Shown piece by piece: positions 20,886 to 37,062 of a stretch of 57,362 nt of DNA. Source of the DNA: Oscillospiraceae bacterium (GTDB taxonomy: Bacteria; Bacillota; Clostridia; Oscillospirales; CAG-272); NCBI GenBank assembly GCA_015065175.1, contig SVQV01000002.1:1-57362 (forward strand), in the 5' to 3' direction. The first letter of the stretch is position 1, and the number at the start of each line of letters is the position of its first letter. The position numbers and the translations under genes are program-made. The notes below the pieces were generated by a model, which saw nothing but the letters and a program-made list of their open reading frames with translations, did not search any database and was not told the DNA's origin.

Positions 20886-21782
20886 TCAGGGGGAAAAGGT
20901 GCTTATCTGATCGCCTGCACTTTCGTAAGACTTAAAGCGCAGGAGTATGTCGGTACAGTCGGACAGGTATGCCGCTGTGTCTATTGAAATGTTGTTATAT
21001 CCCATAAGAAAGCCCTTGCTGCCTGTCCAGATGAGAGTAAACAGCTTTATGATGCACTCAATAAAAACGGCAGAGCTTGGCTCTTTTATTACGCTGCATA
21101 CGATAGAGACGGCAAAAAATGAGGTCACTGTCGTAGGAATGAGAGCGCGGAGTGCGGAAATCAGCCGAGTCTTTTCGGGATTTTTTCGCAGCACTCTGCG
21201 CTCTCCGCTATTATGCCCGACCGATAGAAGCATATCGGGAGTAAGATGTACAGGCTTTATCCTGTCGGCAGAAAGAATTACTTTTTTTGCTTTTCTGCTA
21301 AGCTCGCTTGGAAGTGCGTTTTTATCCTTTCCGCTGTATTTTTCGCAAAACTCGGAATATGATATCCCGCTTGAGAGAAGTATTTCTTTTTTTGCGGAAA
21401 CAAGCTCGCCTTTTACGTATTCATGGCAGAATTCTCCTAAGCGTTCGAGCTTTCCGCTTTTCCTCAGCTCACCCTTTACTTCCTCGTATTCTTCTTTTGC
21501 TTTTATATAAGACTTATCGGAAAGAGCTAATCTCATGCCTGTGTCGGCGAGTGAAAAGTATATAGTGTAAGCGCAGAACAGAAGAATTACAAAGGATAAA
21601 GAAAAGTTTACCGTAACGAATGAGGCAAGTGAAATATCCATAAAGAACACAGCCGCTGCGCAGAAAAGCGTCATTGCGGCTATTATTATGCCTATATTTC
21701 CTATAAAACCGTTTACTGTTTTCTTTACCGCGGTTATCCTTCTGCTTTCGTTGAGAGTTGTAAAATCAAAATTTTCTTGCAT
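20886..21782 (-). CDS. Hypothetical polytopic membrane protein (last gene of, or adjacent to, the phage-like cluster)
   Basis: 298 aa, RBS AAAGGAG. Two N-terminal and two C-terminal TM segments around a charged, coiled-coil-like middle. Confidence 0.6.
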   Translation of the reverse strand: MQENFDFTTLNESRRITAVKKTVNGFIGNIGIIIAAMTLFCAAAVFFMDISLASFVTVNFSLSFVILLFCAYTIYFSLADTGMRLALSDKSYIKAKEEYEEVKGELRKSGKLERLGEFCHEYVKGELVSAKKEILLSSGISYSEFCEKYSGKDKNALPSELSRKAKKVILSADRIKPVHLTPDMLLSVGHNSGERRVLRKNPEKTRLISALRALIPTTVTSFFAVSIVCSVIKEPSSAVFIECIIKLFTLIWTGSKGFLMGYNNISIDTAAYLSDCTDILLRFKSYESAGDQISTFSP

Positions 21783-21808
21783 TTTTTATCTCCTTTTAAT
21801 ATATGATA

Positions 21809-21836
21809 CGGCTCAGGCGGTGTGTTGCCTGAGCCG
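21809..21836 (-). terminator. Intercistronic GC-rich stem-loop (possible attenuator/terminator)
   Basis: CGGCTCAGGC-n8-GCCTGAGCCG, a perfect 10-bp stem. It has only a weak U-tail on the minus strand. Confidence 0.35.
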
Positions 21837-21861
21837 CACTGTTGTCAGAAAGCTGAATAGC

Positions 21862-22224
21862 TTACTGAGGCTTTTCCTTATACCTTTCGGACAGCTTGAA
21901 TAATACAGCTCCCAAAAGATTGAACGGAAAGGCGACGAGTGCTATGGCGGTTATGTCATCAGATATTTTTCCGAGAAGGGAAAATGCTATATAGATGAAA
22001 AGCCATATTACCCATGCCGACGGTGACTTGAAAAATTTTGCTATATGCCTTTTCAGAGGAATGGCGCAAATGAGCAAAAGAATTACCGTGAGCGCGGAAA
22101 CCATTACTTCTCCTCCCTTTGATGCCCATATGGGAAAATGCTCCAATGTGGCAAAAACGGGAGGAAGAATGCAGAAAAGCATTCCTAAAAGATGAAAGAT
22201 CAGGCTTTTCTTATTCGCTTTCAT
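21862..22224 (-). CDS. Holin-like small membrane protein
   Basis: About 120 aa with 3-4 TM segments, positioned at the end of the structural module. Start set at ATG 22224 (the ORF track uses GTG 22233). Confidence 0.45.
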   Translation of the reverse strand: MKANKKSLIFHLLGMLFCILPPVFATLEHFPIWASKGGEVMVSALTVILLLICAIPLKRHIAKFFKSPSAWVIWLFIYIAFSLLGKISDDITAIALVAFPFNLLGAVLFKLSERYKEKPQ

Positions 22225-22855
22225 TGCCGCCACCCGAGGCAGAGCTTTTTATTACCGCTTGAATGCGGTTATATCTTTCTGCCAGCTGTTCCTTCTGAAA
22301 TTCGGGTATATTAGCGCTCATAAATACACCGTAAAGCAGCTCTGTCTGACCCGATAATACCTGAGAAAGAGCCTCGCGCTCTGCTTTTTCTCTCTGAAGC
22401 TCGTCCTTCATTGCAATTGAATTCTGTCTCATTGTCTCCGCATATTCGGTAAGCTCTCCCGCTTTTTCAAGCAGCGGCAGGGTGGTATTCAAAAAGCTTT
22501 CCAGCCGTTCTTCGCTTTTTTTCTGAAGCGCTGTCGCATTTTCTCCCGATTTTATTGCCGCGGCGTATATTCTGTTTATTCCTTCGCTTAAGGTAGGTAG
22601 CAACCCTTTTTTATATAGAAAAGCGGTTATAAGTGAGCCTATAAAGGTGAGTGAGCAGAATATCTCCGATGTATAGCTTCTTACATAGTCGAGCATAAGC
22701 TCGGAAACAGGTGCGTTTTTCTGCTCGCCGTCGGCAGAATGTGAGCTTATGCTTACATTTTCTGCTTCGACGGGTGCTTCGGCGAAGCTTTTGAAGCCGA
22801 AGCTGCAAACAAAGAGAGTGAGTATTGTGAGTGTTAAAAGTATGAGTTTTTTCAT
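22211..22855 (-). CDS. Secreted/membrane coiled-coil protein (XhlA-like position in a lysis cassette, tentative)
   Basis: 214 aa with a signal peptide MKKLILLTLTILTLFVCSFG, one internal TM segment and a long heptad-like C-terminus. Confidence 0.4.
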   Translation of the reverse strand: MKKLILLTLTILTLFVCSFGFKSFAEAPVEAENVSISSHSADGEQKNAPVSELMLDYVRSYTSEIFCSLTFIGSLITAFLYKKGLLPTLSEGINRIYAAAIKSGENATALQKKSEERLESFLNTTLPLLEKAGELTEYAETMRQNSIAMKDELQREKAEREALSQVLSGQTELLYGVFMSANIPEFQKEQLAERYNRIQAVIKSSASGGGNESE

Positions 22856-22870
22856 TTTGTTTCTCCTTTT

Positions 22871-23284
22871 TTATTTAAATAGCTTGCTTCCCTTTATCGC
22901 CTTGGAAAGCTCGGAAAGCTGATTTTCACATGCTGAAAGTCTTTTTGAGAGTCTTTCATATTCGCTTTTGAAAAGCGCTATCTCTTCTGTAGAGTCACAG
23001 CCGCAGGGGGTAAGGATATTATCTTTCAGGCTGAGAGCCTCGCACTTCCAGCGTTTGCTTTTTCCGTATACGGTTATTTTGTTTATTCCTTCGGAAAAAG
23101 CGTTTTTGCTAAGTGTAGCCACGGAATTGACTATAGAGAAGAAGCGTTCGCTGCCGTTTGATGAAACAGACATGCGAAGCGCGCTTACGTCTCCTGTAAA
23201 CGTGATAGATATGAGCGTATCAAGCGTAATGCCTTCACGTGTCTTACAAATTCCGCTTCCGTCCTTATAGAGAATGTACTTCAT
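22871..23284 (-). CDS. Hypothetical phage protein (fibre-accessory position)
   Basis: 137 aa from ATG 23284 behind AAGGAG, with a C-terminal coiled coil. Confidence 0.5.
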   Translation of the reverse strand: MKYILYKDGSGICKTREGITLDTLISITFTGDVSALRMSVSSNGSERFFSIVNSVATLSKNAFSEGINKITVYGKSKRWKCEALSLKDNILTPCGCDSTEEIALFKSEYERLSKRLSACENQLSELSKAIKGSKLFK

Positions 23285-23528
23285 TTTCGGCACTCCTTTT
23301 TCTTATGACAAATGATTCTATTATGTGTTCTTCTGTTTGCGTATAGATGCGCTCTAAAATTTCCGTTTCCTTGTTATATTCGGGCTCGCTTTCGGAAAAG
23401 AGCGGTTTGTAGCCTTGCTCTTTAAGGCGGGCGGGAGACGGGTTTGAATATATCATTCCGTCGAGAGAAAGCAGATTGTCTTTGAGTTCTTCTATGCTTC
23501 CGTCATTTTTAAGCTTGCAGTATTTCAT
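23265..23528 (-). CDS. Small phage protein in XkdW-like position (after the fibre gene)
   Basis: 87 aa, RBS GGAGGT. The call rests on size and position only. Confidence 0.45.
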   Translation of the reverse strand: MKYCKLKNDGSIEELKDNLLSLDGMIYSNPSPARLKEQGYKPLFSESEPEYNKETEILERIYTQTEEHIIESFVIRKRSAENEVHSL

Positions 23529-23546
23529 TTTTTTACCTCCGTTTTT

Positions 23547-26500
23547 TTATGACATTTTTATGCCGCGTACATGGGCATTTATAATACCATCATACCAGAA
23601 ATCCAGAGTGTATCTGTAGTTCGCGCTCGGATAAAAATATCCGTTTGATGTATCTGTTCCCGTAAATTTGAGATTTTCGGGATAAGCAACCTCAATGCTA
23701 TTAGGCCATTCACAGAGTATGAGCCGTGATTTGAAATTGAAATCGATGTCTTCAGGGAAGGCAAGCTCGATAGCGTAATTCTCGTACTGATTTGTGGAAT
23801 AACCTTTCATAATGATGGTTGCGAAGTTTTTTAAGGCAACATAATATGAATATGAATAATCCAGGAAAAGATCACGTTCATTTCTGACCTTAGGGACAGA
23901 AGGGGTAAAGCTATAGCTTCTGCTCTCTCCCGCACCGCCGCGAAGAATATCTATTCTTCCTTTTTTTCTGCTTATGCTGAATATTTCGCAGATTATTTCC
24001 TTGCCGTCTGTATCGGGATATGCCACAGCAGAGTCTTTGCAGGCTATTCTCTGAATATCGCTTTTTACAGCACCTGCGTCTGTGCCGTAGCCGGAATATA
24101 TACCTGCTATGACCTTGCCGCCTTTGCTTAAAAAAGAGCTGTTTATGGTACAGTTGAAATCTCCGGACTGATATATACCGCCGGAGGTGGACTCGTGAAA
24201 GGATGTCAGGAGAAACTCCAGATTACTGCCGTACTTGCTCAGGCATTTTGTAGGAAATCCGTCGCTTGACCAGTTTTCCGTCGGTGCGCACTGTACTGTT
24301 ATTACACACCACTCCCTTGGGTTTGGCTTTTTGGAGAAATCAAGGCACTCTTTTACCAAAAAAGACAGTTGAGGTCCGCATAATACACGCGTAGTCAGAC
24401 TATCATATTTCATTGTTTCAAGGTCCTCGGTAAGCGTCTTGCTACTTCCGTCTCTGTCGGTATAAGCCGTTCCGGCACTTATTGTTTTTGTAAGCGGGGG
24501 AAGATCCGCGGTGTTAAGAAATATAACTCTTATGCAGGCATCTTCGAAATCTGTATAGCAGTATAATCTGTTGGGGTCCTCGTAGTCGTAGTGAACGTGG
24601 TAGTCGCGCGCCAAGTGAGAGATAACTCTCTTATACTCCTTCTGCGGAATAAAGTCGCTCTTGGCTAAGATGTGGGCACCTGTCGAGAGAGTTCCTTTGC
24701 TGTATTTCTGCGCACCGAAATCGCCGTCTCCCGGTGTAGCAAGCACAGGAATCGAGCTTTCCGTGTCGGCAGTCGTTTTAAGCTCTTCAAGCTCGTTTCC
24801 GATGCCGCAAAGACCGAGAAAAGGTATCTTATATTTTTCGGAGATCCTGCGGCAGAGCGCAAGCGCCTTTTTCGTGTTCGCGCAGTCAGAGAAAAATGCT
24901 ACGGCAAAGCGTATGCTGTCATCCTCGGTCACCTCATCAAGCTCTGCCGATATTGCGGCGGCACGGGTGATTATTTCCTCGCTGTCCTCGGATTCTTTCG
25001 GAAGCTTTGCGTCTATTTCGTCGGAGGAATAAGTGTTTCCGAGCAGCTTGTCATCAATAAAAAACGGGCAATCCATCCAAGCCGAGAAGCCGTCCGAGCT
25101 TCTTCTGAAGGTGGCTATCGGCAGATATTCCCTGGATGTGAGTGTGGAGTTTGCGCCGTGAACCGAAAAGACTGATTTAAGATCTGCACAGGTGTCTTTT
25201 GTAAAGCTTTTTAACAGAGCTGTATTTATACAGATCTTTCCTATATCGCTTTCCAATCCGTTTTTGTCGAGGGTAGCGGCGGGGGAGATATCTATTTCAA
25301 GGCTTTTTCCCTTTTCAAATCGGTAAAGGTCGCCGTTTAAGAGCAAAGCGCATTCCTCTGCGGATTTGTTCGGATTGAATAAGAGTTTATTTTTCTGAGT
25401 ATCGAACTTAGGATATGAAGTACCCTTACCAAAAATCCACTGTATGCGGTCCGTCCTCTCGTTTATGTACTGGGTTATTACTTTGTTTTTTACGAGATTT
25501 TCACTTTTTTCGTTCATTCTGTTATCATACATAGGGCGAAAATCGTAGAACGGAGAGTAATCGCTTGCAGAGCTTGAATACTCTATCATATGACGGGAGG
25601 AGTCTGTAAAGGAGCTTCGGGTAAAGGAAACTCTTATATGTCTTATGCCGCTGAATGAGGCGTGATCTATCGGTATGGAGCATCCTAATCCCGAAGAGTT
25701 GAATTTCACCGAGCCTGATATAACATTTTTGTTTATATCATACAGACAGTAGGAAATAGCATTCCAAGGTGTACCGTCCTTTCCCGAATAGCACTTTGAG
25801 CAGTACAGGCGGAGAGCTGCCATAGCGTTTATATAATCTGTTGTTATATAATCCTCGCTTTCTATAAAGACTCCGTTGGAATTTATATATCCGTTTGAGA
25901 TAGCCGTAACATCAAAAACGTTTACATATCCTATACAGTTTTCTGTGAACTGGCTTAACGCCTGAATTATGCAGGTGTCTACAAACGCCTTTACCGAGCG
26001 GCTTTGCACAGGCAGAGTCTCATAAATATTCAGTGTTGCTGTGTTCTCCGCGTCGGCTAAATATTTTCCGCCCTTTACCCAGCCATATCCGTTAAAATAA
26101 CACCAATAGCCATGATCCGCATCCCCCTGACAGCATAACAGATATATGCGGTTATGCTCAACCGATGCATCTTCGTTGAGGCTTGTAAGGTTTCCTATAT
26201 AAGTGAAGGGGGAGCCGCTGTAGGAGGCTGAGAGCCTGTTGGCAAGCGCAAAGACCTCCGACCAGTCTGCCTTTGTTCTTTGAAGCGATGCTACAGTGCT
26301 TCTGTCTGCCTTGCCGCTTGAGAGATCCTCTATATACTCCGTAAGAGAAGCTAAATAGCCTTCGAGCGAACCTGAGCTCCACAGCTCCCAGCCGCTTCCG
26401 CTCCAAACGTAGCTGTTGAAAAGTGTGAGTGAGGCGTTGGAGGGGACAAGATAGATAGCCTCCTCGTGACCTGTATAGGGGGCAGAGGGGAGAGTATATA

Positions 26501-26906
26501 CGCCGTTTATCTTTTTTACCTTGACGAACTCTATCGCCCTTTCGGGAAACAGAAAGCCCATTACCTTTGTAGCAAAATTCAAGAGATTGTATTCGTCGGT
26601 AAGCTTTATTTTTGCCGCAAGAGTTCCGTCCTCTATGCTCTCAAAAACGTCCTTCAGGGTCGGAATTTCAGCTATTCCTGTTTTCATATCCGCGGCGACA
26701 CTTAAGTCGGTGTCGGAATTGTAGAGGGCATCAATAAGAGAGTTTATTTTCTCCCTTAAAAGCTCGGTGTTTTTGTCGAATGCCGCCTTCAGCTCCTCTG
26801 CTGACATGCCGCCTTCTCCGTATTTCGACATGCGGTTAGGTCTTATGGGCAGAGAAGAAACACTGCCTTCTTCGAATTCTGAATTGGTTATTTTGTTTAT
26901 CTTCAT
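23547..26906 (-). CDS. Tail fibre / receptor-binding protein (1119 aa)
   Basis: The N-terminus SLPIRPNRMSKYGEGGMSAEELKAAFDKNTELLREKINSLIDAL is a pattern I associate with Firmicute phage fibre proteins. ATGA overlap with the upstream gene. Confidence 0.6.
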   Translation of the reverse strand: MKINKITNSEFEEGSVSSLPIRPNRMSKYGEGGMSAEELKAAFDKNTELLREKINSLIDALYNSDTDLSVAADMKTGIAEIPTLKDVFESIEDGTLAAKIKLTDEYNLLNFATKVMGFLFPERAIEFVKVKKINGVYTLPSAPYTGHEEAIYLVPSNASLTLFNSYVWSGSGWELWSSGSLEGYLASLTEYIEDLSSGKADRSTVASLQRTKADWSEVFALANRLSASYSGSPFTYIGNLTSLNEDASVEHNRIYLLCCQGDADHGYWCYFNGYGWVKGGKYLADAENTATLNIYETLPVQSRSVKAFVDTCIIQALSQFTENCIGYVNVFDVTAISNGYINSNGVFIESEDYITTDYINAMAALRLYCSKCYSGKDGTPWNAISYCLYDINKNVISGSVKFNSSGLGCSIPIDHASFSGIRHIRVSFTRSSFTDSSRHMIEYSSSASDYSPFYDFRPMYDNRMNEKSENLVKNKVITQYINERTDRIQWIFGKGTSYPKFDTQKNKLLFNPNKSAEECALLLNGDLYRFEKGKSLEIDISPAATLDKNGLESDIGKICINTALLKSFTKDTCADLKSVFSVHGANSTLTSREYLPIATFRRSSDGFSAWMDCPFFIDDKLLGNTYSSDEIDAKLPKESEDSEEIITRAAAISAELDEVTEDDSIRFAVAFFSDCANTKKALALCRRISEKYKIPFLGLCGIGNELEELKTTADTESSIPVLATPGDGDFGAQKYSKGTLSTGAHILAKSDFIPQKEYKRVISHLARDYHVHYDYEDPNRLYCYTDFEDACIRVIFLNTADLPPLTKTISAGTAYTDRDGSSKTLTEDLETMKYDSLTTRVLCGPQLSFLVKECLDFSKKPNPREWCVITVQCAPTENWSSDGFPTKCLSKYGSNLEFLLTSFHESTSGGIYQSGDFNCTINSSFLSKGGKVIAGIYSGYGTDAGAVKSDIQRIACKDSAVAYPDTDGKEIICEIFSISRKKGRIDILRGGAGESRSYSFTPSVPKVRNERDLFLDYSYSYYVALKNFATIIMKGYSTNQYENYAIELAFPEDIDFNFKSRLILCEWPNSIEVAYPENLKFTGTDTSNGYFYPSANYRYTLDFWYDGIINAHVRGIKMS

Positions 26907-29671
26907 TCTTTTATCCTTCCTGCGACACGGTAACGGTATGACATACTGAAAATTCCGAACGGTCGCTTGTATTCATCGGAAAATATCCGATATTGCTTTT
27001 CTGTCCAGCGCTTTTCCTTTTCGGACAAGGGTATATTTATGCGCTGAGAGGTTTCAAATGAGAAACTGTCGAACTCCACATCGTCAAAACCGAAAACATT
27101 ATTTTGTGGGTGATCTATATCCTTCCAACCCACTCTGTCGGTGCGTACTCCTATTTTTATTTTTCCGCTGCCGAAGGTTTTCAGATGAGCGCAGAGCGAG
27201 CGCTTTACTGTAGTCTTAGTAAGATGAGGTATTGAGCAGTTGTCTGACGAGCTTGTGAGTGAGCTTGTGTAACGGCGGTTATCGAAAGCGTAATATTTAC
27301 TGTCAATATTTCCCGTTTCATCCCGCATATCTGTATTGAAGCAGCATAAATCTCCGCATTCTGTACCGAAGAACAGAATTTCGTTTATGTTTCTCATTTC
27401 GCATATAGGGTAGAAAGATCCGCCCGTCATTTCACCCTCGCTGTCGCATATATAGCAGTGTGCTAAGCCTTCTTCGTCGTGTTCCACTGTGTAATAGACG
27501 GCTTTGTTCTTCATCTCATAGCGGTCCTCCTTATCCTCATAGCAGTAAGAGCTTAAGACCTCTCTGCTGTCCGAAAGCTCACCCCATGTCTTTTCCTCGA
27601 TAGGAAGATACATTTCTTCAAATAATACACACATATTTGTAAGCTCGCTCGGCAGAGGCGAATAAAAGTATTTCGTATACTGACCGAGGTATGTGCCTAT
27701 TCCTTTGAGTCTGTACCACTCGTATTGCAAGTCGCCGCTCGCATGCCTGAAGGTGCGTCTGCTGTCGGCTAAGAAGATGTCCTCACCGAGCGCAATGCAC
27801 AGATATCCGAGCCAGCGGCAGATAAGCGCCTTTTCGGGCTTGCTTTGCAATAGAGCGAGGTCTATATTTGAGGAGCGGTGTTCTATATGATGCTCGGCGT
27901 TAAGATATCGCTTTGAGAGCGCGTCCAGTCCTCTGTCCGAGAGAAATACCGTATCGTCATAGAAGTTATACGCCCTGCCGAGCGCTCCTACCCCGCTTAT
28001 AGAATAAGCGCAAGGGTAAATTCTCGGCACAAGATCATATGCCGTGTCGGACGGGTAATGAATATACACACCGCCCTTTTCACTGTCCTCTTTAAAAACG
28101 ATAAGATTTTCACCGCTCGCAAGCAAATATGAAATCCGCGAGTCTGTACGTCCTACCGTAAAATAGTTAAGAGCGCCTACATATTCGGGAAGGTTCAGTC
28201 CGTTTGTGTCCTTTGAAGAATAAAAAACACAGGCGGGAAATTCGGGGTTTCCGGAAAAGAATATCCTTCCGTCAAAAATAGCAGATACGGTACAGCGAGC
28301 GATTATTCCGTAAGCTCCTCCCTTATAATTCGGGAATTCCTTACAAATGCCAGTATTGTCTGATGCAGGCGACAAGCCGGATACGGTCAGGGTCTTACCG
28401 CATATTTTTCCGTAGTCCGTGGTGCTTATTATTATGGCAGAAATAAGTCCTTTTTCGGATTTTGCGGTATAACTGAGGTCGGAGGAATTTTCGTTGAGTA
28501 AAGCTCCGTCGAGCATTACAGAAGAAAGACTTTTGCATTTTTCGTTTATATAGAAAATAAAGCTTCCGCTTCTTTCTCTGTAGCCATAGCTGATGTTTTC
28601 GCATTCCTTTAAAGGAATGTTGCTTCCTTCTACCGTTATTGCCGACCATTGCTCTGTAGTGCCCATATAATTCACCTTGGAAAGTGAGGTGTCGTAAAAG
28701 CAATAAAGCGGAACGGTGCTTATCTTATAGCCTATGCATACCTCGGAAAGAGATGAGCAATACATAAACGTGCCCCTTCCCAGCTCTTCAAGGCTTGCGG
28801 GCAGATAGGCTTTTTTGAGAGAAGTACAGGAATAAAAGGCGCCGTAGCCTATCTTTTTTATTCCGTCTGCCATTTTAATTTCTTTCATCGAGGTGTTTTT
28901 ACTGAAGGCATATGGAGCTATAGAATCTATATAATAAGTTCTGCCGTCAATTTCGGTACAGCTCGGAATGTAAATGTTAGTTTGCGTTGCTTCAAGCCCC
29001 TCAACACAGCAGGTATCCTCGCCCGTTATCCTGTATACGAGTCCCGTTGTTTCCTCTGTATATTTTGTCAGACCGTCTAAGTTTTTTGAAAGGTGATATA
29101 CACAGGAAAAGCTGTCCGAAAGGAGATTTTTCTGCTCATATGCTTCTCCGTCCGAGTATGTGGTGGGAATATAGGCTATATCTTTTACCGATTTCAAGCT
29201 CGTTCCGTCAAGAACGAAGTAATCCTCTCCGTCAAGTATATATACCTTTCCGCCAAACTCAAAGAACATACTTTTTTCGTCCCTTAAAGGCTCCTCGCTT
29301 TTGATTTCGTTATCTGCCGACAGAAGTGGGATCAATAGCGGTTCAAAGTAAGTATTTCTTCTGTTCAGCGGGAAGCGGTAGAGCCTTTTTCCCGCATGAA
29401 CGAGAACATATGTTGTGGCTTCGTTTTGCGGAGTGTAGTGAAAAATCGCGTTTATTTTTCGGATGCTTTCTCCGTCCGAAAAGGAATATATTTTTCTGTA
29501 TCCGGGCACTGTCTCAAGCGCGGCGCCGTCATTGCCGTAATAGTCACGGTACATATTTTCCATATCCGATAGCCTCATTTCGCTTATGCTGCTCGGATTT
29601 TCGGACAAATTCAAGCCAAGAAAGCTGTTGTAATATCTGCTGTATTCGGTTCTGCTTTGCGCCTTTGACAT
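26903..29671 (-). CDS. Giant virion-module protein with BspA-type leucine-rich repeats
   Basis: 922 aa from ATG 29671 (TGATG overlap with the upstream stop). LRR_5-like units run IAPYAFSKNTSMKEIKMADGIKKIGYGAFYSCTSLKKAYLPASLEELGRGTFMYCSSLSEV. Confidence 0.6.
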   Translation of the reverse strand: MSKAQSRTEYSRYYNSFLGLNLSENPSSISEMRLSDMENMYRDYYGNDGAALETVPGYRKIYSFSDGESIRKINAIFHYTPQNEATTYVLVHAGKRLYRFPLNRRNTYFEPLLIPLLSADNEIKSEEPLRDEKSMFFEFGGKVYILDGEDYFVLDGTSLKSVKDIAYIPTTYSDGEAYEQKNLLSDSFSCVYHLSKNLDGLTKYTEETTGLVYRITGEDTCCVEGLEATQTNIYIPSCTEIDGRTYYIDSIAPYAFSKNTSMKEIKMADGIKKIGYGAFYSCTSLKKAYLPASLEELGRGTFMYCSSLSEVCIGYKISTVPLYCFYDTSLSKVNYMGTTEQWSAITVEGSNIPLKECENISYGYRERSGSFIFYINEKCKSLSSVMLDGALLNENSSDLSYTAKSEKGLISAIIISTTDYGKICGKTLTVSGLSPASDNTGICKEFPNYKGGAYGIIARCTVSAIFDGRIFFSGNPEFPACVFYSSKDTNGLNLPEYVGALNYFTVGRTDSRISYLLASGENLIVFKEDSEKGGVYIHYPSDTAYDLVPRIYPCAYSISGVGALGRAYNFYDDTVFLSDRGLDALSKRYLNAEHHIEHRSSNIDLALLQSKPEKALICRWLGYLCIALGEDIFLADSRRTFRHASGDLQYEWYRLKGIGTYLGQYTKYFYSPLPSELTNMCVLFEEMYLPIEEKTWGELSDSREVLSSYCYEDKEDRYEMKNKAVYYTVEHDEEGLAHCYICDSEGEMTGGSFYPICEMRNINEILFFGTECGDLCCFNTDMRDETGNIDSKYYAFDNRRYTSSLTSSSDNCSIPHLTKTTVKRSLCAHLKTFGSGKIKIGVRTDRVGWKDIDHPQNNVFGFDDVEFDSFSFETSQRINIPLSEKEKRWTEKQYRIFSDEYKRPFGIFSMSYRYRVAGRIKE

Positions 29672-30434: not shown

Positions 30435-31496
30435 TTAAAGGGCGGTTGCGCCTGCGACCGAGGAAGCAGAGTCAACGGCAAGCAGAATATGCTTATATGT
30501 GCCGAAGCCTACGCCAAAGCGGCATCTGCCGTTCCAAATGTAATTTCCTGTGTGGTTATCCACCCAGTTGGATACGGTGAGCGGAACACGGTTGAAGAAC
30601 ATATTTCCACAGAGATTTTTGTTTGCCTCGCCCGACATTATCATAACTCTGTCGTCATCTGTCTGCCAGTTTGGCATAACAACGATATTCCAGTTTCCGT
30701 ACTGAAGGTTTATATCATTGTAGCCGTTGCCGAGCGCACCCTCGGAGCCGCAGACCTTCTTCGCTATAGCTTCTGCCGCAGGTCTGTTTCCGGGGAGGAT
30801 TATGGTATCGGCGGTATAACCGAGAACGTCACCGTTTTCGTCCTTCATATTGCGGAGTTTGGAAGAAAGCTCGGAAAGAGCTGCCTCAAAGGCTTCTGTG
30901 CTTGACTTTCTCGCGTCAGTAGCACCCGATGAGAAAATATCGCCGTAGAAGAAGTTGGACTGAGTTCCGCTTGCCTTCTTGCCGCCCCACTTGTGAGAAT
31001 TGGCAAAGAGCGCAAGCCCGTCGGGAGCGGTAAGGTCAAGATTTGCTTTTGCAAAGGTGCCCTTCGTCTTTGTGCCGTTTGCGAGCGCGTACTCGCAGAT
31101 CTTGTGCATCGTCTTGTAGTATGCGCGTGTGAAGTTTTCGGCTCTGCGCTTTGCGTCAGCCGCCACGCCGTAATTGGCATCCTCCATCATCTGCGCAGTT
31201 ACGGTAAACTCCTTCATAAACTGGATATGCTCGATAAACTTCTTGTAGGTCTCCTGCATATCATCGTTTTCCGCGCCTGCGCCCTCTTGTGCTGCCGCAA
31301 ATACGTCGAACTCGTTCTGACCTACAATGGTTTCTCCGAATTTGTTGGACTTTTCAATATTGAAAAGCCAGTCGCATATACCGCCCTTCTTAGTCTGAAG
31401 GTCGCTTTCATGCTCTATGACCATCTTGAGCGGTGTTTCAAGCTTGCCTATCTGGGCATTGTTCAAGCCGCTGCTTTTAGAATATACAATTGCCAT
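30435..31496 (-). CDS. Major capsid protein (putative)
   Basis: 353 aa with a strong RBS, positioned after the scaffold-like and decoration-like genes. It is followed by a 164-bp gap containing a GGGACCTC/GGGGTCCC stem-loop. Confidence 0.6.
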   Translation of the reverse strand: MAIVYSKSSGLNNAQIGKLETPLKMVIEHESDLQTKKGGICDWLFNIEKSNKFGETIVGQNEFDVFAAAQEGAGAENDDMQETYKKFIEHIQFMKEFTVTAQMMEDANYGVAADAKRRAENFTRAYYKTMHKICEYALANGTKTKGTFAKANLDLTAPDGLALFANSHKWGGKKASGTQSNFFYGDIFSSGATDARKSSTEAFEAALSELSSKLRNMKDENGDVLGYTADTIILPGNRPAAEAIAKKVCGSEGALGNGYNDINLQYGNWNIVVMPNWQTDDDRVMIMSGEANKNLCGNMFFNRVPLTVSNWVDNHTGNYIWNGRCRFGVGFGTYKHILLAVDSASSVAGATAL

Positions 31497-31520
31497 TTTT
31501 AGTTTTCCTTTCTTTTACAA

Positions 31521-31925
31521 TTATTTAAAGCATACCTGTATCTTGTCGCCCGCCGAAGCTGCGCCGCAGAGGTCTGTGACGGTTGCCACTCCGTTTGAGG
31601 TGGTAGCGGTTACGCTCACGGCATCGGTATGCAGAGTTACCTTGCTGCCCGGTACAAGTGCCGAAGGTGAGGCGGTAACGGGTACTTCAAAGATCATTTC
31701 GGCAGATACAGGCTCTGCCATAATAGCGCGGTTTTCGCTCGCGGGAGCTGTGTAGTCCTCGCAGGATATAAAATCGGGCTTTACGCTTGCCGCGCATTTT
31801 GTGAGCTTGCCCGCGCTCAAGGTAAGTGCCTCGCCGCAGAGATAGCTTTCGCCTGCGGTGGAGGGAAGAGCCATAGGCTCACCCTGATTTGTTCTTCCGT
31901 TTAAAATTTTTACAAGTCTGAACAT
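31521..31925 (-). CDS. Head decoration-like protein (DUF2190-like, tentative)
   Basis: 134 aa, beta-rich and Ala/Ser/Thr/Val-rich, immediately upstream of the capsid gene. Confidence 0.4.
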   Translation of the reverse strand: MFRLVKILNGRTNQGEPMALPSTAGESYLCGEALTLSAGKLTKCAASVKPDFISCEDYTAPASENRAIMAEPVSAEMIFEVPVTASPSALVPGSKVTLHTDAVSVTATTSNGVATVTDLCGAASAGDKIQVCFK

Positions 31926-31945
31926 ATTGAATTTCCTTTCTTTTA

Positions 31946-32518
31946 TTATGATGTTGCCCTTTTGTAAAGGCGCTCAAGCTCTCGGTCGCTGAGGCTTCCG
32001 AAAAGCTCTCTTGCCGAATGTAATTCCTCCGCGCTCATTCTGTTTTTCTGCACGGCGCTTGCGTTTGGTACCGCGCTTCTTAAGTGAGACTTTCCGTCCG
32101 AGCGCGCTACTCTTTGAGCAATTGAAGTAATCATTCGGTCCATATTTGTTGCCGCCAGCGCCTCGCTGACCGACAGTCCCGCATCTCTCAGCTCGGCGAA
32201 CCTCACAGCGTTATCCAGATCTCTTAAGCTTTCAAGAGATGAAAACTCGGGGAAGAGTCGCTTTATTTCCGCTAAGTCCTCTGCGGCAATACGGGAATAA
32301 TCTGTTTCCTCATCCGATTTATTTTCGGTCTGCTCGCTTATTGCTTCCTCCTCATCGTTTTCGGGAGCGGCTGAGCCTTCCGATCTGCTTTCCTCTACAC
32401 CGTTTTGTAAACTGTTGTTTACTTCTTCGGAGCAGGGAATAGCGTCGCTTTCCTGTGCGGGGATTGTTTCATAGCTGTCCTGCATTTTGATTTTTTCCTT
32501 TCCGAGATTTTCCTTCAC
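31946..32518 (-). CDS. Scaffolding-like acidic/helical protein
   Basis: About 180-190 aa with an acidic N-terminus and a helical C-terminus, located between portal and capsid. The start is ambiguous (GTG 32518 or ATG 32485). Confidence 0.45.
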   Translation of the reverse strand: MKENLGKEKIKMQDSYETIPAQESDAIPCSEEVNNSLQNGVEESRSEGSAAPENDEEEAISEQTENKSDEETDYSRIAAEDLAEIKRLFPEFSSLESLRDLDNAVRFAELRDAGLSVSEALAATNMDRMITSIAQRVARSDGKSHLRSAVPNASAVQKNRMSAEELHSARELFGSLSDRELERLYKRATS

Positions 32519-32523
32519 ACGTA

Positions 32524-32655
32524 TTATTTAGAGCGAAGGTCGTTTTGCTTTTTTGTGACAGTGGCTTTAGGCTCGTCTGTCTGACTCTTGGGGGAATTGA
32601 TTTTTCCGCCCTTGTTTGTCGCATAAGGGTTATTCTGCTTGTTATAATCCTTCAT
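32524..32655 (-). CDS. Small basic protein (43 aa)
   Basis: ATG 32655 lies behind AGGAGGA. Sequence MKDYNKQNNPYATNKGGKINSPKSQTDEPKATVTKKQNDLRSK. It is preceded by the conserved 39-nt motif. Confidence 0.45.
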   Translation of the reverse strand: MKDYNKQNNPYATNKGGKINSPKSQTDEPKATVTKKQNDLRSK

Positions 32656-32680
32656 AATGCATCCTCCTTTCCGGCTACAT

Positions 32681-32719
32681 TTTAAGTGTAGCAAAAATGC
32701 AACACGAAATGGGTACAAA
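32681..32719 (-). promoter_or_regulatory. Cluster-specific conserved upstream motif, copy 2
   Basis: 31/39 nt identical to 37021-37059. On the minus strand it reads TTTGTACCCA-n6-GTTGcATTTTTGCTAcACTtAAA, 25 nt before the ATG. Confidence 0.5.
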
Positions 32720-32725
32720 CTCTCT

Positions 32726-33454
32726 TTAACTGAAAAGTCCCGAGCTGAAGCCGCTTTGACTGAGATTTACCTGTTTTGCTACCTCAGCCATCTGCTCTGC
32801 TTCTTCCTTTTCAATACCGCAAGCCATAAGATATGCTACCGCATTATCACCTGCGAGTCGCTTTTTCAGCAGCTCCTCTAACAGTACACGTTTTGTGCTT
32901 ACGCTAACAGTTGTTTTCTCGGGCTCTTCTATCACCTCTTCCTTTTCATTAAGCACAATACCGATGTCAGCTATATATTTTGCTGTCTCCTCGTCAAGCC
33001 CTGCGGCTATAGCGAGCTTATAGGAGGTCTCATAGTCGTCCGTGCCGTATCTGTGGATGTCGGAGAGCGTGTCGCTTGCAAGGCGGTTTTGCGCCGAGTC
33101 GGATTTCTCCAAATATTCCGCATATGCGCTTCTGTTTCTCAGAGCCGCCGCATTTCGCTCCTTTTCCGCTTCACGCTTGGAATTCTGAAGCTCGGAATAG
33201 GCGTTGGAGTCCAAATAAGACGCATAGCCGCTTCCGTTCAGTCCCTTTCGGGATAATGCCTCGCCTGTCTTTCCGTATCCCGCTCTTGCGCGGTCATACT
33301 CCTTCTGAGCATCGTTTATAGCTTCGGCATAATTTGTTTCGCTTGAGTCTCCCTGCTCGTTCAACCATTGTGAATAGGTCTTTTGCTTCTTTTTCCTGGA
33401 GGCATTGTATTTATTTATAAAATCCTCCAGTGTCACATTTGATTTTTTTGCCAT
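32726..33454 (-). CDS. Hypothetical head-module protein (242 aa)
   Basis: RBS GAGGA, 22-nt overlap with the portal gene end, charged and helical. Confidence 0.5.
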   Translation of the reverse strand: MAKKSNVTLEDFINKYNASRKKKQKTYSQWLNEQGDSSETNYAEAINDAQKEYDRARAGYGKTGEALSRKGLNGSGYASYLDSNAYSELQNSKREAEKERNAAALRNRSAYAEYLEKSDSAQNRLASDTLSDIHRYGTDDYETSYKLAIAAGLDEETAKYIADIGIVLNEKEEVIEEPEKTTVSVSTKRVLLEELLKKRLAGDNAVAYLMACGIEKEEAEQMAEVAKQVNLSQSGFSSGLFS

Positions 33455-35286
33455 GCTTCGTCCTCGCTTTCGTTTGTTGTGTCTGTATGCGGATTTTCTT
33501 CAAGCAGAGAGCGGAAATATTCCACATTCTCTCTTGCGTGCGGATAATGCGCTCTCTCCTGGTTCTGCCAATAGCGCAGAAGCGTAATTGTTTCCGAGGG
33601 GTCTCCGAGCGTGCCTGCCTTGAGGTTTTCTAAATTTTTCTCCCAAAGGACCTCTCTCTGCTGCTCCACGCTGTCGTTCATATCGATAGAGAACAGATAT
33701 CCGTCATCATAGTAGTAGCTGCCGTTTTTCGTATTGAATTCTATAAAATCATAGCGGTTGAATTCGGCATTATGTGTTCTTCCGTAGGCATCCTTGTAGG
33801 CTATCATTTTAGGCTCGTCGGCATATGCGAGGCAGTATTCGAATATGAGGCGGTCTATATCCGCATACGCGGAATGCTTCATTCGTCTCTTGGATTCAAG
33901 TCTGCCCGCCGCCTGCTCGACCTGTAATTGCTTAGCCTTGCCCGAGACGGCTGAGTCATCGCTCAGACCTATATAGGTGTCAGAAATACCTATAATTCTC
34001 TTGGCATGCTCATAGAGACGGTCGGATTGCAAGACGTCCTGAGATATTGAGGGCGTCGTGTCTATTGTGCCGTACATTCCCACGCTTTCGCCCGGCTTCA
34101 GCTTCACTACCTGTCCGAATACGCTGTTGTTGAGCGCTATTTGCGCATCCTCGGGAACAATGGGGGTAATGCCCGCACGGAGCAGCTTCTGCATTATTCG
34201 GCTTTCGAGCTTGTTAATCTGCTGCTGTTGGGGTCTTATGAATTCGCAGTCGCTCTGACCGAATACCGAGCCGTCCTTTGAGGTGTTCTTTCTTATTACA
34301 ATAGGGAAGTGCTTGGGTATGTAATAAGGGAGTCTCGTTTTCCGCATATCTACCCTTGAAAGCTCGCTTTCCTTGCAGGGAATTCCGTTTTTCGTGAGAA
34401 GCTCGCCTATAGCGTTCATTCTCGGAGTTTTTGCGCAGATGATACTTCCGTCGCTGCGCACTATATCCTCGTCCAATTCCTCATAGTCGATATTCTCTGA
34501 GACGAACATTCCCTGAGGGCATTCGCAGAGACCTCTCTCCCTTCCGCACTTTTTACAGGTGTATTTCTTGCGTCTGTAAAAGTCCTCAATGTCAAGAAGG
34601 ATAACGTCTCCCGACCAGGCAAACTCACATACGGCATTTTCACCGTTTCTGTAGAAGCAATGTATAAGCGTTACCGTATCCTCTCCCGCGCTCAGCTCGT
34701 TTTCATCCTCTGTCTCCGCCTTTTCGGCTTCGCTTTCGGATATTCCGTATCTTCTTATAAGCTCGCTTTTTGTGGTGTGGAAGCGTACAAAGCAATACTC
34801 CATTTCATCTATATTGCAAATGTTTGGCTGAGGGAAAAAGTCGCAGGGGTTTATCAGAGAGACTCTTACACCGCCCTTCTCGTTATGAGTTTCGAGTGAG
34901 TTATCCCACTCAACGAACCATATGCTTGAGCCGTATATATAGGTATACCGCTCGTCCATATCGTTCATTTTTTCAAACGGGAGCAGATCGTGCATCTGAG
35001 CGCAGAGCTTTTCTACAGATTTCGCATTCCTGTCCCTTTTCTCACTGTATTCCCTCGCCTCTACCTTCGGTGCGGGAATGTGTGAGGAGACCTGAGCCTC
35101 TATAAGCTCGTAGGTTATGTTTCTTATACAGCTTGCCCTTTCGCTTGAGCCGTCTATCGTGTCGCTTCCTCTGTATTGCGCCATGTTTTTCTCATGTGCA
35201 TCTATAAGAGAGCTGCTCGCGTTTTTTGCGCTTTCAAAAAGAGCGTCGAAATAGGCAAGCCTGTTTTCGTTCGTTACAGTTTTCAT
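33433..35286 (-). CDS. Portal protein
   Basis: 617 aa from ATG 35286 (ATGA overlap with the TerL stop). Size and position directly after the large terminase fit a portal. Confidence 0.7.
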   Translation of the reverse strand: MKTVTNENRLAYFDALFESAKNASSSLIDAHEKNMAQYRGSDTIDGSSERASCIRNITYELIEAQVSSHIPAPKVEAREYSEKRDRNAKSVEKLCAQMHDLLPFEKMNDMDERYTYIYGSSIWFVEWDNSLETHNEKGGVRVSLINPCDFFPQPNICNIDEMEYCFVRFHTTKSELIRRYGISESEAEKAETEDENELSAGEDTVTLIHCFYRNGENAVCEFAWSGDVILLDIEDFYRRKKYTCKKCGRERGLCECPQGMFVSENIDYEELDEDIVRSDGSIICAKTPRMNAIGELLTKNGIPCKESELSRVDMRKTRLPYYIPKHFPIVIRKNTSKDGSVFGQSDCEFIRPQQQQINKLESRIMQKLLRAGITPIVPEDAQIALNNSVFGQVVKLKPGESVGMYGTIDTTPSISQDVLQSDRLYEHAKRIIGISDTYIGLSDDSAVSGKAKQLQVEQAAGRLESKRRMKHSAYADIDRLIFEYCLAYADEPKMIAYKDAYGRTHNAEFNRYDFIEFNTKNGSYYYDDGYLFSIDMNDSVEQQREVLWEKNLENLKAGTLGDPSETITLLRYWQNQERAHYPHARENVEYFRSLLEENPHTDTTNESEDEAWQKNQM

Positions 35287-36644
35287 AATGGTTCTCCGTA
35301 TTTCTTTTTCAAATAAATTTTTTCTTCCTCGCTCGCCGCATAATAGTCCTGCCACATATCGGGAGTCCAGAGCGTTCGGGTGAGAGTATTCTCCGATTCG
35401 TTCGGTCTCGAATAGAAAATAGCGAAGCCTCTTAACGCATCGGGAGCGTGTGTTATTTCGTGCGGCTCGTTTGCCGTGTCAGTCGGTCTTTGCGTGTCTA
35501 TCTGGAGCATCGGCAGGCATTTTATTATCTCGGTGCAGTTGCGGAAAATTTTCAACCTCGTATGTCCCTCGCAGTCGCTTTTCAGAAGCTCCTTTACAGA
35601 TAACCAGCCTGTTTCACGGTCATTCGAGGTCCTTGTAAAATACAGACCGTTTTCCGAAAAGATGAGCGCCTTGCTTCTGCCGCTCTCCTGGCTTCTGCTC
35701 CATAGGTCGGGCGGCGCTAAGGTGGCATAAATGCTTTCGTCTGCAGGGGTGGCATCTATTATCTTCTTAGAGGCATCGCTTATCATCAGATTGCTTTCGC
35801 ACAGCTCTCGGTAGACATAAGCGTTTTTGTCGCTGTCTATGGCTATCCAGAGACAAGCCAGCCTGTCGAGTCCGTAGTCTATCGTGCGGTATTTGCGCCA
35901 TTCCTTCGGAATAGGGAAGGGGTTGCAGGTGTGCTTTTCGTAATCAAACTCGGAAAAGTACTGCCCCTCAAAAATATTCCAGTCTCCGTAAAGCAGAGCC
36001 TTCCTCTGTGACTCGGGAAGCGAGAGAAGTCTTTTCTTGTAGTCGGGGTCGCTCTCGCAGAGAAACAGATTGTCGTCTATTTTTGACGGAATAAATACCC
36101 GTCGGCTTCCGTCCGATGCTGTAAATACAGTATTTGGCGGCGCGGGGTCAACGAAGCGAGCCTTCACCCACATGTGCCCGATACCGCCCGGATTTGTTGA
36201 GGATTTTATCTGCTTCGGATTAGAGTTTGCGCCTCTTACTCTTGATATAAGATAGAGATACTGAAATTCCGTAAAGTGAGTAAGCTCGTCAAATCTTACT
36301 GTATCGTACTCCGCGCTCTGATATTGGAAAACGTCATTTTCGGTAGCACAGTAGCCAAAATCAAGTATGCTTCCGTTTTTGAATTTTCCTACGTGGCAGG
36401 TAGAGTTATAGGTGTAAATCTCACGGGGAAAAAGCGAGAGACTGACACGGATGAGAGATTTTTCAAGCTCCGAAAAGGTGCGCCTGAGAATAAGCTGCTT
36501 GGATTTCGGATATTTCAGCGCATAAAGCAGAGCGTCAACAAGCTGACCGTATGACTTGCCGCCGCCTGCCGCGCCTCCGAAGAGGACCTCGGTAGCCGTA
36601 GCGGAAATAAATTTTTCCTGTTTATTTGTTATCTTTATTTCCAT
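35283..36644 (-). CDS. terL: Terminase large subunit
   Basis: Walker A LFGGAAGGGKSYG, a Walker B-like VRFDELTHF and a C-terminal nuclease-like region. Start ATG 36644 behind GGGAGGAG. Confidence 0.85.
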   Translation of the reverse strand: MEIKITNKQEKFISATATEVLFGGAAGGGKSYGQLVDALLYALKYPKSKQLILRRTFSELEKSLIRVSLSLFPREIYTYNSTCHVGKFKNGSILDFGYCATENDVFQYQSAEYDTVRFDELTHFTEFQYLYLISRVRGANSNPKQIKSSTNPGGIGHMWVKARFVDPAPPNTVFTASDGSRRVFIPSKIDDNLFLCESDPDYKKRLLSLPESQRKALLYGDWNIFEGQYFSEFDYEKHTCNPFPIPKEWRKYRTIDYGLDRLACLWIAIDSDKNAYVYRELCESNLMISDASKKIIDATPADESIYATLAPPDLWSRSQESGRSKALIFSENGLYFTRTSNDRETGWLSVKELLKSDCEGHTRLKIFRNCTEIIKCLPMLQIDTQRPTDTANEPHEITHAPDALRGFAIFYSRPNESENTLTRTLWTPDMWQDYYAASEEEKIYLKKKYGEPL

Positions 36645-36999
36645 TTTCAAGCTCCTCCCTTTTTTCTGTTCCCATAACGGTTATCTTTACCTCAAATGGC
36701 GTGTCATCTCCCGCTTCCTCCTCGCTCTCGGAAAAGCCGTATTTAGAGGAAAGCAAGAATTTAACAAAGGAGCTGTCAAAGCGCTTGACAAGCGCTCCGT
36801 CTGTCAGCATATCGCAAAGGCGCGCCACACATTCTTCATACGCCATCGCAAACTCCCCGTTTTCCTGTCTCCACCTTTCAAGGTCTGCGGTGTGCGCCCC
36901 TATCGAAAAAGCGAACTTGGGAAACGAGGGCAGAGCCTTTCCGTCTCCGTATGTGAAAAAATTGAGCATTTTTTTGCAGTATTCCTTGTTATATTCCAT
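36622..36999 (-). CDS. Terminase small subunit-like protein
   Basis: 125 aa. The pattern LPSFPKFAFSIGAHTADLERWRQENGEFAMAYEECVARL...KFLLSSKYGFSE resembles Terminase_5-type TerS. Strong RBS GAAGGAGG. Confidence 0.6.
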   Translation of the reverse strand: MEYNKEYCKKMLNFFTYGDGKALPSFPKFAFSIGAHTADLERWRQENGEFAMAYEECVARLCDMLTDGALVKRFDSSFVKFLLSSKYGFSESEEEAGDDTPFEVKITVMGTEKREELENGNKDNK

Positions 37000-37020
37000 T
37001 ATTTTCCTCCTTCTACGCTA

Positions 37021-37059
37021 TTTCAGTTTAGCAAAAATCCAACTCATTTTGGGTACAAA
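37021..37059 (-). promoter_or_regulatory. Cluster-specific conserved upstream motif, copy 1
   Basis: On the minus strand it reads TTTGTACCCA-n6-GTTGgATTTTTGCTAaACTgAAA, 21 nt before the TerS-like ATG. Confidence 0.5.
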
Positions 37060-37062
37060 AAA

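Follow-up and report, generated by a model that had tools for sequence, protein, structure and literature searches.

The stretch of DNA analyzed here, hereafter the window, comprises 57,362 nt (57 kb) from an Oscillospiraceae bacterium of the class Clostridia (assembly GCA_015065175.1, contig SVQV01000002.1, positions 1 to 57,362), and it carries a compact cluster of 16 phage-type genes that is probably a host-domesticated particle locus resembling gene transfer agents (GTAs). The cluster occupied positions 20886-36999 on the minus strand (~16.1 kb), and all of its open reading frames (ORFs) were intact and co-oriented in a single contiguous operon. The gaps between neighboring ORFs varied from -23 to +164 nt, and good ribosome-binding sites preceded most of the 16. 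An initial annotation of the window had described these ORFs as intact and tightly packed, and gene calls on public contigs agreed: in 16 public metagenome contigs with an identical major capsid protein (MCP), the same 16 genes were called independently in the same groEL...ROK context; the JGI samples 3300018878, 3300018495, and 3300023371 are among those with this exact MCP. The overlaps that it had listed were real on the minus strand, namely the stop/start overlaps ATGA (35283-35286 and 26903-26906) and TGATG (29669-29673) and the 14-23 nt overlaps of TerS/TerL, portal/g04, g12/g13, and g14/g15. The housekeeping flanks that it had given, ROK and groESL, were likewise correct: the ROK regulator lay to the left, and to the right came the groEL terminator, groES, and also spoIIAA-spoIIAB-sigF.

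Gene content and organization of the cluster

The first gene encoded the small terminase TerS (36622..36999, 125 residues; this and all following gene coordinates are on the minus strand), which matched phrog_3064 (1e-13) and, weakly, Pfam GP3_package. A TerS without a DNA-binding domain was considered from the partial match to these two families and from the longer phage homologues (167-200 residues, so that the window protein is ~40-75 residues shorter), and it was rejected on the alignment and the structure model. Residues 23-60 were invariant or nearly so in the alignment and were modelled as a helix-turn-helix (HTH) plus a long helix, with a predicted local distance difference test score (pLDDT) of 82-92. 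The HTH-like N-terminus of the model consisted of helices 26-32 and 37-46, followed by the long helix, and the best fold match, a weak one, was the full-length Sf6 gp1 TerS. Because this HTH-like N-terminus is conserved, the protein was not counted among the small terminases that lack a DNA-binding domain. The large terminase TerL (35283..36644, 453 residues) matched phrog_979 (2.7e-47) and the Pfam families Terminase_3 and Terminase_6N, and it contained the Walker A motif GGAAGGGKS that had been read initially. The portal protein (33433..35286, 617 residues) was of the SU10 type, as indicated by phrog_156 (6e-43) and a Pfam SU10_portal score of 37.7 bits, where the cut-off is 30, and its start was fixed by the ATGA overlap with TerL. 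Sequence searches of the PDB with the portal, as a single protein and as a profile, gave no match.

Genes g04 to g07 lay between the portal and the MCP. The product of g04 (32726..33454) was a charged, helical protein of 242 residues with no family match and a ratio of nonsynonymous to synonymous divergence (dN/dS) of 0.10; it occupied the slot of a giant MuF_C/LPD38 protein in relatives. The small, basic g05 (32524..32655, 43 residues) was kept in most loci. The acidic g06 (31946..32518, 190 residues, of which 40 were aspartate or glutamate) stood directly before g07 and the MCP in all loci, and its PHROG matches were only of unknown function; its position suggests a scaffold role. The head-associated g07 (31521..31925, 134 residues) matched phrog_24113 (5e-17), of unknown function, and is a candidate decoration or accessory protein; it was found next to the MCP even in the distant relatives L146, L158, and L159 (loci are cited by L numbers). 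The MCP itself (30435..31496, 353 residues) was recognized by phrog_371 (4e-9) and by tblastn to annotated phage capsid genes, and its relatives carried Pfam Phage_capsid_4. Among the initial gene labels, profiles thus bore out TerS, TerL, portal, and MCP, whereas "scaffold-like" and "decoration-like" are positional guesses and the signals for the adaptor were weak. The 164-nt gap after the capsid gene (30271-30434) was the only sizeable intergenic gap of the operon and contained a weak hairpin (30350-30362). In phages, the gap after the capsid gene is the usual site of a partial terminator that boosts capsid transcript levels.

The protein of 199 residues in the conserved position between MCP and nozzle (29671..30270) is a candidate head-to-tail adaptor. 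It showed a weak match to Pfam SU10_adaptor (E 0.006, below the cut-off), and the best PDB match of its profile was the SU10 adaptor 7z47, at a non-significant E of 0.42. The next gene, g10 (26903..29671), encoded 922 residues. Its AlphaFold model, built from a 60-sequence alignment, had a pLDDT of 87.7 and a predicted TM-score (pTM) of 0.78, and Foldseek matched it with a probability of 1.00 to the nozzles of cyanophage A4, T7 (gp12), SU10 (7z4f_G, 7z4b), P22 (gp10, 8eap_D, E 8.6e-12), and Sf6. By this modelled fold, the protein is a podovirus tail nozzle. A BspA-type leucine-rich-repeat (LRR) domain was inserted at about residues 205-350 (LRR_5, 3.5e-20) and was missing from some nozzle homologues (P0340-P0347); PDB sequence searches with g10, as a single protein and as a profile, matched this domain alone. 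BspA-type leucine-rich repeats are typical of bacterial surface adhesins. The adhesin-type insert therefore suggests that the nozzle itself may take part in host-surface recognition. The initial annotation had placed the proteins of 922 and 1119 residues together as giant distal proteins; the former proved to be the nozzle by fold, and the latter (g11, 23547..26906) is a variable protein whose distal role is assigned from its position. The N-terminus of g11 had a weak tail-fibre PHROG match, with otherwise no informative match, and a PDB sequence search with the single protein found none. In other lineages, the g11 slot held proteins of 155+155+377, 290+324, or 350+390 residues, the last with DUF6273. 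This position and variability point to a candidate fibre, spike, or receptor-binding protein. In one metagenome contig with an identical MCP (L149, 10569-13928), g11 was split into ORFs of 488 and 599 residues, which points to a frameshift variant or else to an error of assembly. The SU10-type portal and the nozzle fold agreed with the short-tailed, podovirus-like architecture proposed at the outset.

Downstream of g11, two accessory genes were lineage-restricted: the small g12 (23265..23528, 87 residues, dN/dS 0.18) and g13 (22871..23284, 137 residues), which had a C-terminal coiled coil. Hydropathy predicted an N-terminal signal or transmembrane segment in g14 (22211..22855, 214 residues, also with a coiled coil; conserved in 54 loci), four transmembrane helices in the holin-like g15 (21862..22224, 120 residues, no family match; 56 loci), and two N-terminal plus one to two C-terminal transmembrane segments in the last gene, g16 (20886..21782, 298 residues; 44 loci).

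Searches of the 16 proteins against Pfam, PHROGs, and NCBIfam found no integrase, recombinase, repressor, or replication protein, and no endolysin, head protease, tape measure, sheath, or tail tube. Ordinary metabolic, regulatory, and sporulation genes made up the window's 30 other large ORFs, among which none of these families was found either. Pfam-type scans of the cluster proteins detected no toxin or bacteriocin family, no att-like repeat or excisionase was found at the locus, and Rfam gave no match in the cluster or leader. The initial statement that integrase, replication, regulatory, tail-tube, and endolysin genes were missing in and near the block held for the cluster and the 30 other ORFs, as did the lack of tRNA genes for the whole window. 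As for genes that might have been hidden, a nozzle emerged from the fold search, and profiles revealed no protease or endolysin family.

The leader before TerS (37000..37096, minus strand) contained a strong terminator hairpin (37063-37096), the box TTTGTACCCAAAATGAG...GCTAAACTGAAA, and a GGAGG ribosome-binding site. The sister species L091, L093, and L096 had kept this box immediately behind their single groEL terminator, and from its sequence the leader may act as a promoter. In the window, the groEL terminator hairpin (37310-37345) recurred as its reverse complement at 37063-37096. The ~210 nt between the two copies contained a sigma70-like promoter with a TG-extended -10 (37260-37289) and four to five units of a short hairpin plus CAATTCAT; the sister species had one terminator and no insert. 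The insert (37063-37345) may be an attenuator before TerS or a small repeat element that has moved in. A different region, TTGCACA..GTCAC-N7-GTGAY..TTTGGAAG..TATACTTACA-N17-TATAMT, was conserved upstream of TerS in the lineages with an adjacent ABC-F gene. It was located 100-210 nt 5' of TerS in L063, L059, L049, L066, L028, L076, L079, and others, and the same dyad/promoter-like region was present in L088 at ~470-540; these lineages differ in GC content. The motifs suggest a candidate operator and promoter for a conserved host regulator. A terminator or attenuator conserved before TerS across all lineages was not found, and the hairpins there were mostly the terminator of the upstream gene.

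Elsewhere in the window, a RadC-like gene (4433-5848, minus strand) and a ComM/Mg-chelatase-like gene (5983-7563, plus strand) were located at a distance of ~15 kb from the cluster. In Rhodobacter, the uptake of DNA carried by its GTA, RcGTA, requires ComM-type competence homologues. Both genes are common, and their proximity to the cluster may be meaningless.

Distribution, chromosomal position, and inheritance

Relatives of the MCP with 69-96% identity were found in at least 124 species-representative genomes. The carriers were metagenome-assembled genomes (MAGs) of uncultured Clostridia, "Eubacteriales," and "Oscillospiraceae" from the guts of ruminants, other animals, and humans. Gene order was examined in 80 loci out of these genomes, and the order TerS-TerL-portal-...-MCP-adaptor-nozzle-...-g14-g15-g16 was kept across the 80 loci fetched. 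Genuine internal stops were found in two of ~800 gene copies (TerL of L061 and MCP of L038).

The flanks varied between lineages and were constant inside each. In four lineages they were housekeeping genes, located ~20-500 bp (up to 1.4 kb) from both cluster ends, and the precomputed Pfam annotation of these four contexts contained no mobility genes. The first context, with groES-groEL on one side and ROK on the other, was shared by the window and at least three sister species. In the second, found in 24 species, an amino-acid ABC transporter and an ABC-F ATPase lay ~200-500 bp upstream of TerS (in a few cases up to 1.4 kb), and a DinG-like helicase or an MFS transporter came right after g16. 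The third (four species) had RimO, PgsA, and DUF554 upstream and an FAD oxidoreductase and NrdD downstream. The fourth had recA, miaA, and an MGDG synthase upstream, and its operon was circularly permuted into the order scaffold-MCP-adaptor-nozzle-...-g16-TerS-TerL-portal. In this permuted lineage (L008, L009, L021, L154, and L155; e.g., L154 9506-21038), the genes formed one continuous operon in which g16 overlapped the TerS start. The permutation could have arisen from an excised circular intermediate or from tandem duplication plus deletions. A layout split into two loci ~25 kb apart (L012 and L094) was seen in MAG JAFYLR only. In a groEL-anchored scan, relatives with groEL of 86% identity or less had no cluster beside groEL among the matches listed. 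The ROK-groESL position is therefore specific to the small lineage of the window and is not ancestral; the interval between ROK and groESL, which the initial annotation had singled out for comparison, was occupied within that lineage. The varying chromosomal positions and the permuted lineage indicated that the element has moved at least a few times between lineages.

The locus L001, from a different species with the same flanks, served as the reference for selection in the window. In this pair, dN/dS ranged from 0.026 (MCP) to 0.25 over all 16 genes, with 0.044 for TerL. The dS values were 0.4-1.5 for the cluster (2.8 for g04), and the flanking genes (groEL, groES, and the sigF operon) gave 0.5-1.4. 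In six more independent pairs of species, dN/dS was 0.01-0.36 at unsaturated dS, and those of the MCP were 0.01-0.10 across species pairs. In the 24 species of the second context, eight element proteins diverged together with the adjacent ABC-F (Mantel r 0.60-0.86, p 0.001). The mean divergence was 0.19 for the MCP and 0.31 for ABC-F, so the capsid evolved more slowly than a housekeeping ATPase, and ABC-F differed by up to 41% between species that shared the fixed element position. The GC content was 0.458 in both the cluster and the host genes, and the GC content at third codon positions (GC3) was 0.506 versus 0.499. Relative synonymous codon usage (RSCU) correlated between cluster and host with r 0.88, compared with 0.93 between two halves of the host genes. 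These data showed long vertical inheritance and purifying selection on every gene.

The domesticated locus that had been proposed initially was upheld by the gene order (at least 124 species, 80 loci examined), the co-divergence with the neighboring ABC-F under the same flanks inside lineages, dN/dS values far below 1 for every gene in seven species pairs, and the host-like codon usage. No integrase-bearing prophage carrying the cluster was found in the close relatives checked, which had housekeeping flanks instead. Low dN/dS, co-divergence, and host-like composition together exclude a recent deletion remnant. A decaying, functionless prophage remnant kept by chance is likewise highly improbable: missing integrase, replication, and lysin genes are also typical of deletion remnants, and the metagenomic variant L149 has a split g11, but 16 intact genes recur in the same order in ~80 examined species with nearly no internal stops, selection is seen at dS up to more than 1, and the MCP evolves more slowly than its ATPase neighbor.

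A second explanation is that the locus is a still-mobile minimal phage or a helper-dependent element, which packages its own 16-kb genome and relies on the host or a helper for replication and integration. The variable position, the circular permutation, and the split-locus MAG fit this explanation, and the HTH-like domain of TerS could recognize a pac site. Two divergent copies occurred in single MAGs, namely JAZRQS (L005, L032), JAZOCY (L006, L042), and JAZNDG (L052, L070), and in the two best-resolved of these the MCP identity to the window differed by ~8 points between copies; they may be paralogous loci or two species binned together, that is, binning artefacts. Related sequences were also present in faecal virome scaffolds. 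On the other side, the locus has no integrase, excisionase, replication initiator, repressor, or att-like repeats and lies close to housekeeping genes, its position is fixed within lineages where it co-diverges with ABC-F, and its dS and codon usage are like those of the host. No circular or terminally repeated viral contig was found: IMG/VR contained 10 short non-circular fragments among 2.9 million viral contigs, and the longest was a host fragment ending in a tRNA gene. This small number is also an indirect hint that particles would package host DNA with no preference for the locus. The presence of a nozzle and a distal protein further sets the locus apart from capsid-forming satellites, which have int/rep genes and no tail genes. 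Taken together, an element that still moves on its own or with a helper is quite unlikely.

The IMG/VR contig L088 (17.3 kb), which contained the whole cluster, was considered as a complete small phage and rejected, as it had no terminal repeats and ended in host sequence with a tRNA gene. The TerL relatives in Butyricicoccus, Dysosmobacter, and Faecousia had TerL alone in common with the cluster and were set aside as different elements. A 229-kb contig labelled Akkermansia muciniphila (L106, CAVDSZ010000002.1) carried a Clostridia-type cluster (MCP 81%, TerL 70%), and this bin is almost certainly mislabelled or contaminated. L292 and L300 likewise had the labels Kiritimatiellae and Bacteroidaceae.

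Prophage relatives and possible function

The portal profile found relatives in 504 species genomes, many of them Lachnospiraceae and Oscillospiraceae, and the cultured carriers included Gemmiger, Allofournierella, Anaerotignum, and Hominiventricola. The module TerL-portal-scaffold-g07-MCP-adaptor-nozzle was kept in many of these relatives. The more distant ones looked like ordinary prophages: they encoded a DnaB helicase, endolysins of the GH25 or Amidase_3 type, and numerous small early genes. Where MCP identity was 37-54% (L321-L324, e.g., L323 585-8921), the relatives had a protein of 2464-2820 residues between portal and scaffold; those with recorded Pfam matches showed MuF_C and/or LPD38 "polyvalent protein" domains in it. 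These prophages with DnaB, lysins, and MuF/LPD38 giants show what the window subfamily has lost. Among deposited phages, two unverified scaffolds from human faecal viromes came nearest (portal 33%, MCP 26-28%), and their gene order was the same; Bacillus phage Page was a very distant relative, and the identity to cultured phages was below 25%. By these comparisons, the window subfamily is a reduced branch, fixed in the chromosome, of a widespread stock of temperate podophages.

A compact cluster of ~12 kb from the wider portal family was observed on a 174-kb contig of an uncultured Gemmiger sp. (L246, 8091-20309). It comprised TerS, TerL, portal, scaffold, g07, MCP, adaptor, nozzle, a 400-residue protein, and a GH25 lysin. 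An FAD oxidoreductase lay upstream of it, and an Amidase_3 gene followed downstream. A scan of the larger ORFs in the 8 kb before the cluster revealed neither an integrase nor any other gene of obvious phage type.

We consider the window locus to derive, through domestication by the host, from a family of temperate short-tailed phages common in gut Clostridia (a "viriform") and to be GTA-like in nature, with a probability of about 0.6. Domestication in itself is strongly supported and very likely; the overall figure is lower because the specific GTA function is inferred. In the proposed scheme, transcription of the operon would start in the region immediately after the groEL terminator. An HK97-type capsid, formed by the MCP with the scaffold-like g06 and g07, would be built on the SU10-type portal, and TerS and TerL would load it with DNA. 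The adaptor, the nozzle, and the variable distal g11 would then close the capsid into a podovirus-type particle, and the membrane proteins g14-g16 may act in release. Host DNA would be the likeliest cargo, in line with FpGTA and other gene transfer agents, and a GTA function, in which this DNA is packaged and passed on, is the most probable reading. Particle production, cargo, release route, and host benefit are predictions of this scheme. With no integration, replication, or regulatory module and with chromosomal inheritance, the particles could therefore not propagate the locus as a virus.

Gut Clostridia already have a podovirus-like GTA on record, FpGTA of Faecalibacterium prausnitzii (Borodovich et al., Nat Commun 2026, PMC12946183; preprint 10.1101/2024.11.15.623857); the initial annotation had known of no described GTA in this class. 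FpGTA is encoded by two separate operons, one of 10.5 kb for head and packaging and one of 5.5 kb for fibre and lysis, and its ~40-nm particles contain 8.4-8.9 kb of random host DNA (PMC12946183). GTA-like packaging from loci yet to be identified was also reported in other Ruminococcaceae, Oscillospiraceae, and Christensenellaceae, including Gemmiger, Ruminococcus callidus, and Onthomonas (PMC12946183), and a 2026 preprint proposed further GTA candidates in Coprocola and Butyricicoccaceae.

Another explanation keeps the domesticated particle and gives it a role other than transfer, such as PBSX-like killing or lysis, or altruistic lysis and DNA release, so that DNA is packaged without productive delivery. 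The same evidence for domestication fits this explanation, the exchange of g11 from lineage to lineage resembles that of a specificity determinant, the LRR domain in the nozzle is of the adhesin type, and the authors of FpGTA left a PBSX-like alternative open (PMC12946183). However, the full set of terminase, portal, and capsid is under very strong constraint (TerL and MCP dN/dS 0.01-0.10), which argues that DNA packaging matters, and no toxin or bacteriocin family was detected in the cluster. A non-transfer role is thus unlikely, though less so than a mobile element or a remnant.

Several points weigh against a GTA-like locus. The TerS model retains an HTH-like region, unlike the small terminases of RcGTA and FpGTA, the latter reported to lack a DNA-binding domain. 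The 16-kb locus could fit a small capsid of phi29 size, so self-packaging is possible. The element has relocated between lineages, and some MAGs carry two copies. No endolysin family was found in the cluster or window, which bears on the release route. For FpGTA, particles, proteomics, and 8.4-8.9 kb DNA have been seen, whereas the window family has been described from its genes.

Capsid-packaged bacterial DNA is abundant in gut viromes and GTA-like packaging is known from several gut Clostridia families, and one encoding locus, FpGTA, has been pinned down so far. The cluster offers a second, apparently distinct, sequence-defined candidate family, and its markers (MCP identity of 69-96% and the fixed gene order) allow a direct search in ruminant and human transductomic data and in long-read data from virus-like particles. 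If the locus is active, the taming of short-tailed phages by their hosts would be a recurring path to gene exchange in dominant fibre-degrading, butyrate-associated gut anaerobes, and the compact all-in-one operon would be convenient for experiments. Should the locus prove not to be a GTA, a function at the level of the host is still needed to account for a capsid gene slower to evolve than a housekeeping ATPase.

Comparison with known systems

The window cluster shares with RcGTA of Alphaproteobacteria, a head-tail cluster of ~15 kb, the lack of integration and replication genes, vertical inheritance, purifying selection, and a composition ameliorated to the host; these are criteria in the GTA literature (PMC9662315, PMC10883770). 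There is no sequence relationship between the two, and the hosts of the window family are Gram-positive anaerobes. RcGTA is siphovirus-like, with a tail tube, a tape measure, and a head protease, whereas the window cluster is short-tailed. RcGTA also differs in its TerS, which lacks the DNA-binding domain, and in having several accessory loci elsewhere.

PBSX of Bacillus is, like the window cluster, a chromosomally fixed phage-derived particle locus of a Gram-positive host that does not propagate itself. It is myovirus-like, with a contractile tail, its own repressor, a sigma-like regulator, and lysis enzymes. No contractile tail, repressor, regulator, or lysis enzyme of this type was found in the window cluster. 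Satellites of the cf-PICI type encode their own capsid and packaging proteins together with int/alpA/rep, have no tail genes, and use the tails of a helper. In contrast, the window cluster lacks int/rep and has its own adaptor, nozzle, and distal protein. The traits of an integrated temperate prophage (integrase, repressor or early genes, replication genes, att repeats, tRNA target) were all absent from the window.

The SU10-portal podophages of gut Clostridia, for which Bacillus phage Page and phage SU10 are distant references (cultured or with solved structures), have the same TerL-portal-scaffold-g07-MCP-adaptor-nozzle module, Pfam SU10_portal, and the SU10 nozzle fold. As an SU10-like (kuravirus-type) head-tail module, the window cluster had a portal above the Pfam gathering score, the nozzle fold, and, weakly, the adaptor. 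These podophages carry DnaB, small early genes, and GH25/Amidase_3 lysins, and the nearer ones MuF_C/LPD38 proteins, none of which occurred in the window.

FpGTA, too, is a chromosomal phage-derived cluster of gut Clostridia with the order TerS-TerL-portal-scaffold-MCP-...-nozzle, a podovirus-type nozzle related to P22 gp10 (8eap), no replication or integration genes, and a near-ubiquitous presence inside its host clade. Its MCP (RCH50849.1) is assigned by NCBI to the "N4-gp56 family" (PMC12946183 Table S2), whereas the window MCP and 10 relatives gave no match to the N4-gp56 NCBIfam model at E values up to 0.1. A Prp-like gene stands between portal and MCP in FpGTA and is missing from the window cluster, and the fibre, holin, and endolysin of FpGTA are encoded in a second operon 125 kb away, in contrast to the one 16-kb operon without a detected endolysin here. 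The LRR insert of the window nozzle is a further difference. In the best 80 of the 504 portal-family loci, Gemmiger, Allofournierella, and Ruthenibacterium were present and Faecalibacterium was absent. Orthology with FpGTA found no support in this absence or in the negative N4-gp56 proxy; the two families, set apart here by the published description and the N4-gp56 model, may have a common or a separate origin. We tentatively suggest, as a possibility still short of even odds, that the cluster belongs to an undescribed single-locus podovirus-type GTA family, apparently independent of FpGTA, long fixed in a large clade of uncultured ruminant and human gut Clostridia (at least 124 species), and derived from the same temperate podophage stock whose compact Gemmiger relatives (e.g., L246) could be the source of the GTA-like 8.4-8.9 kb packaging seen in Gemmiger (PMC12946183). 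A podovirus-like GTA in gut Clostridia is already known in FpGTA, and the window family is apparently a distinct one, unusually broadly and deeply conserved and laid out as a single operon.

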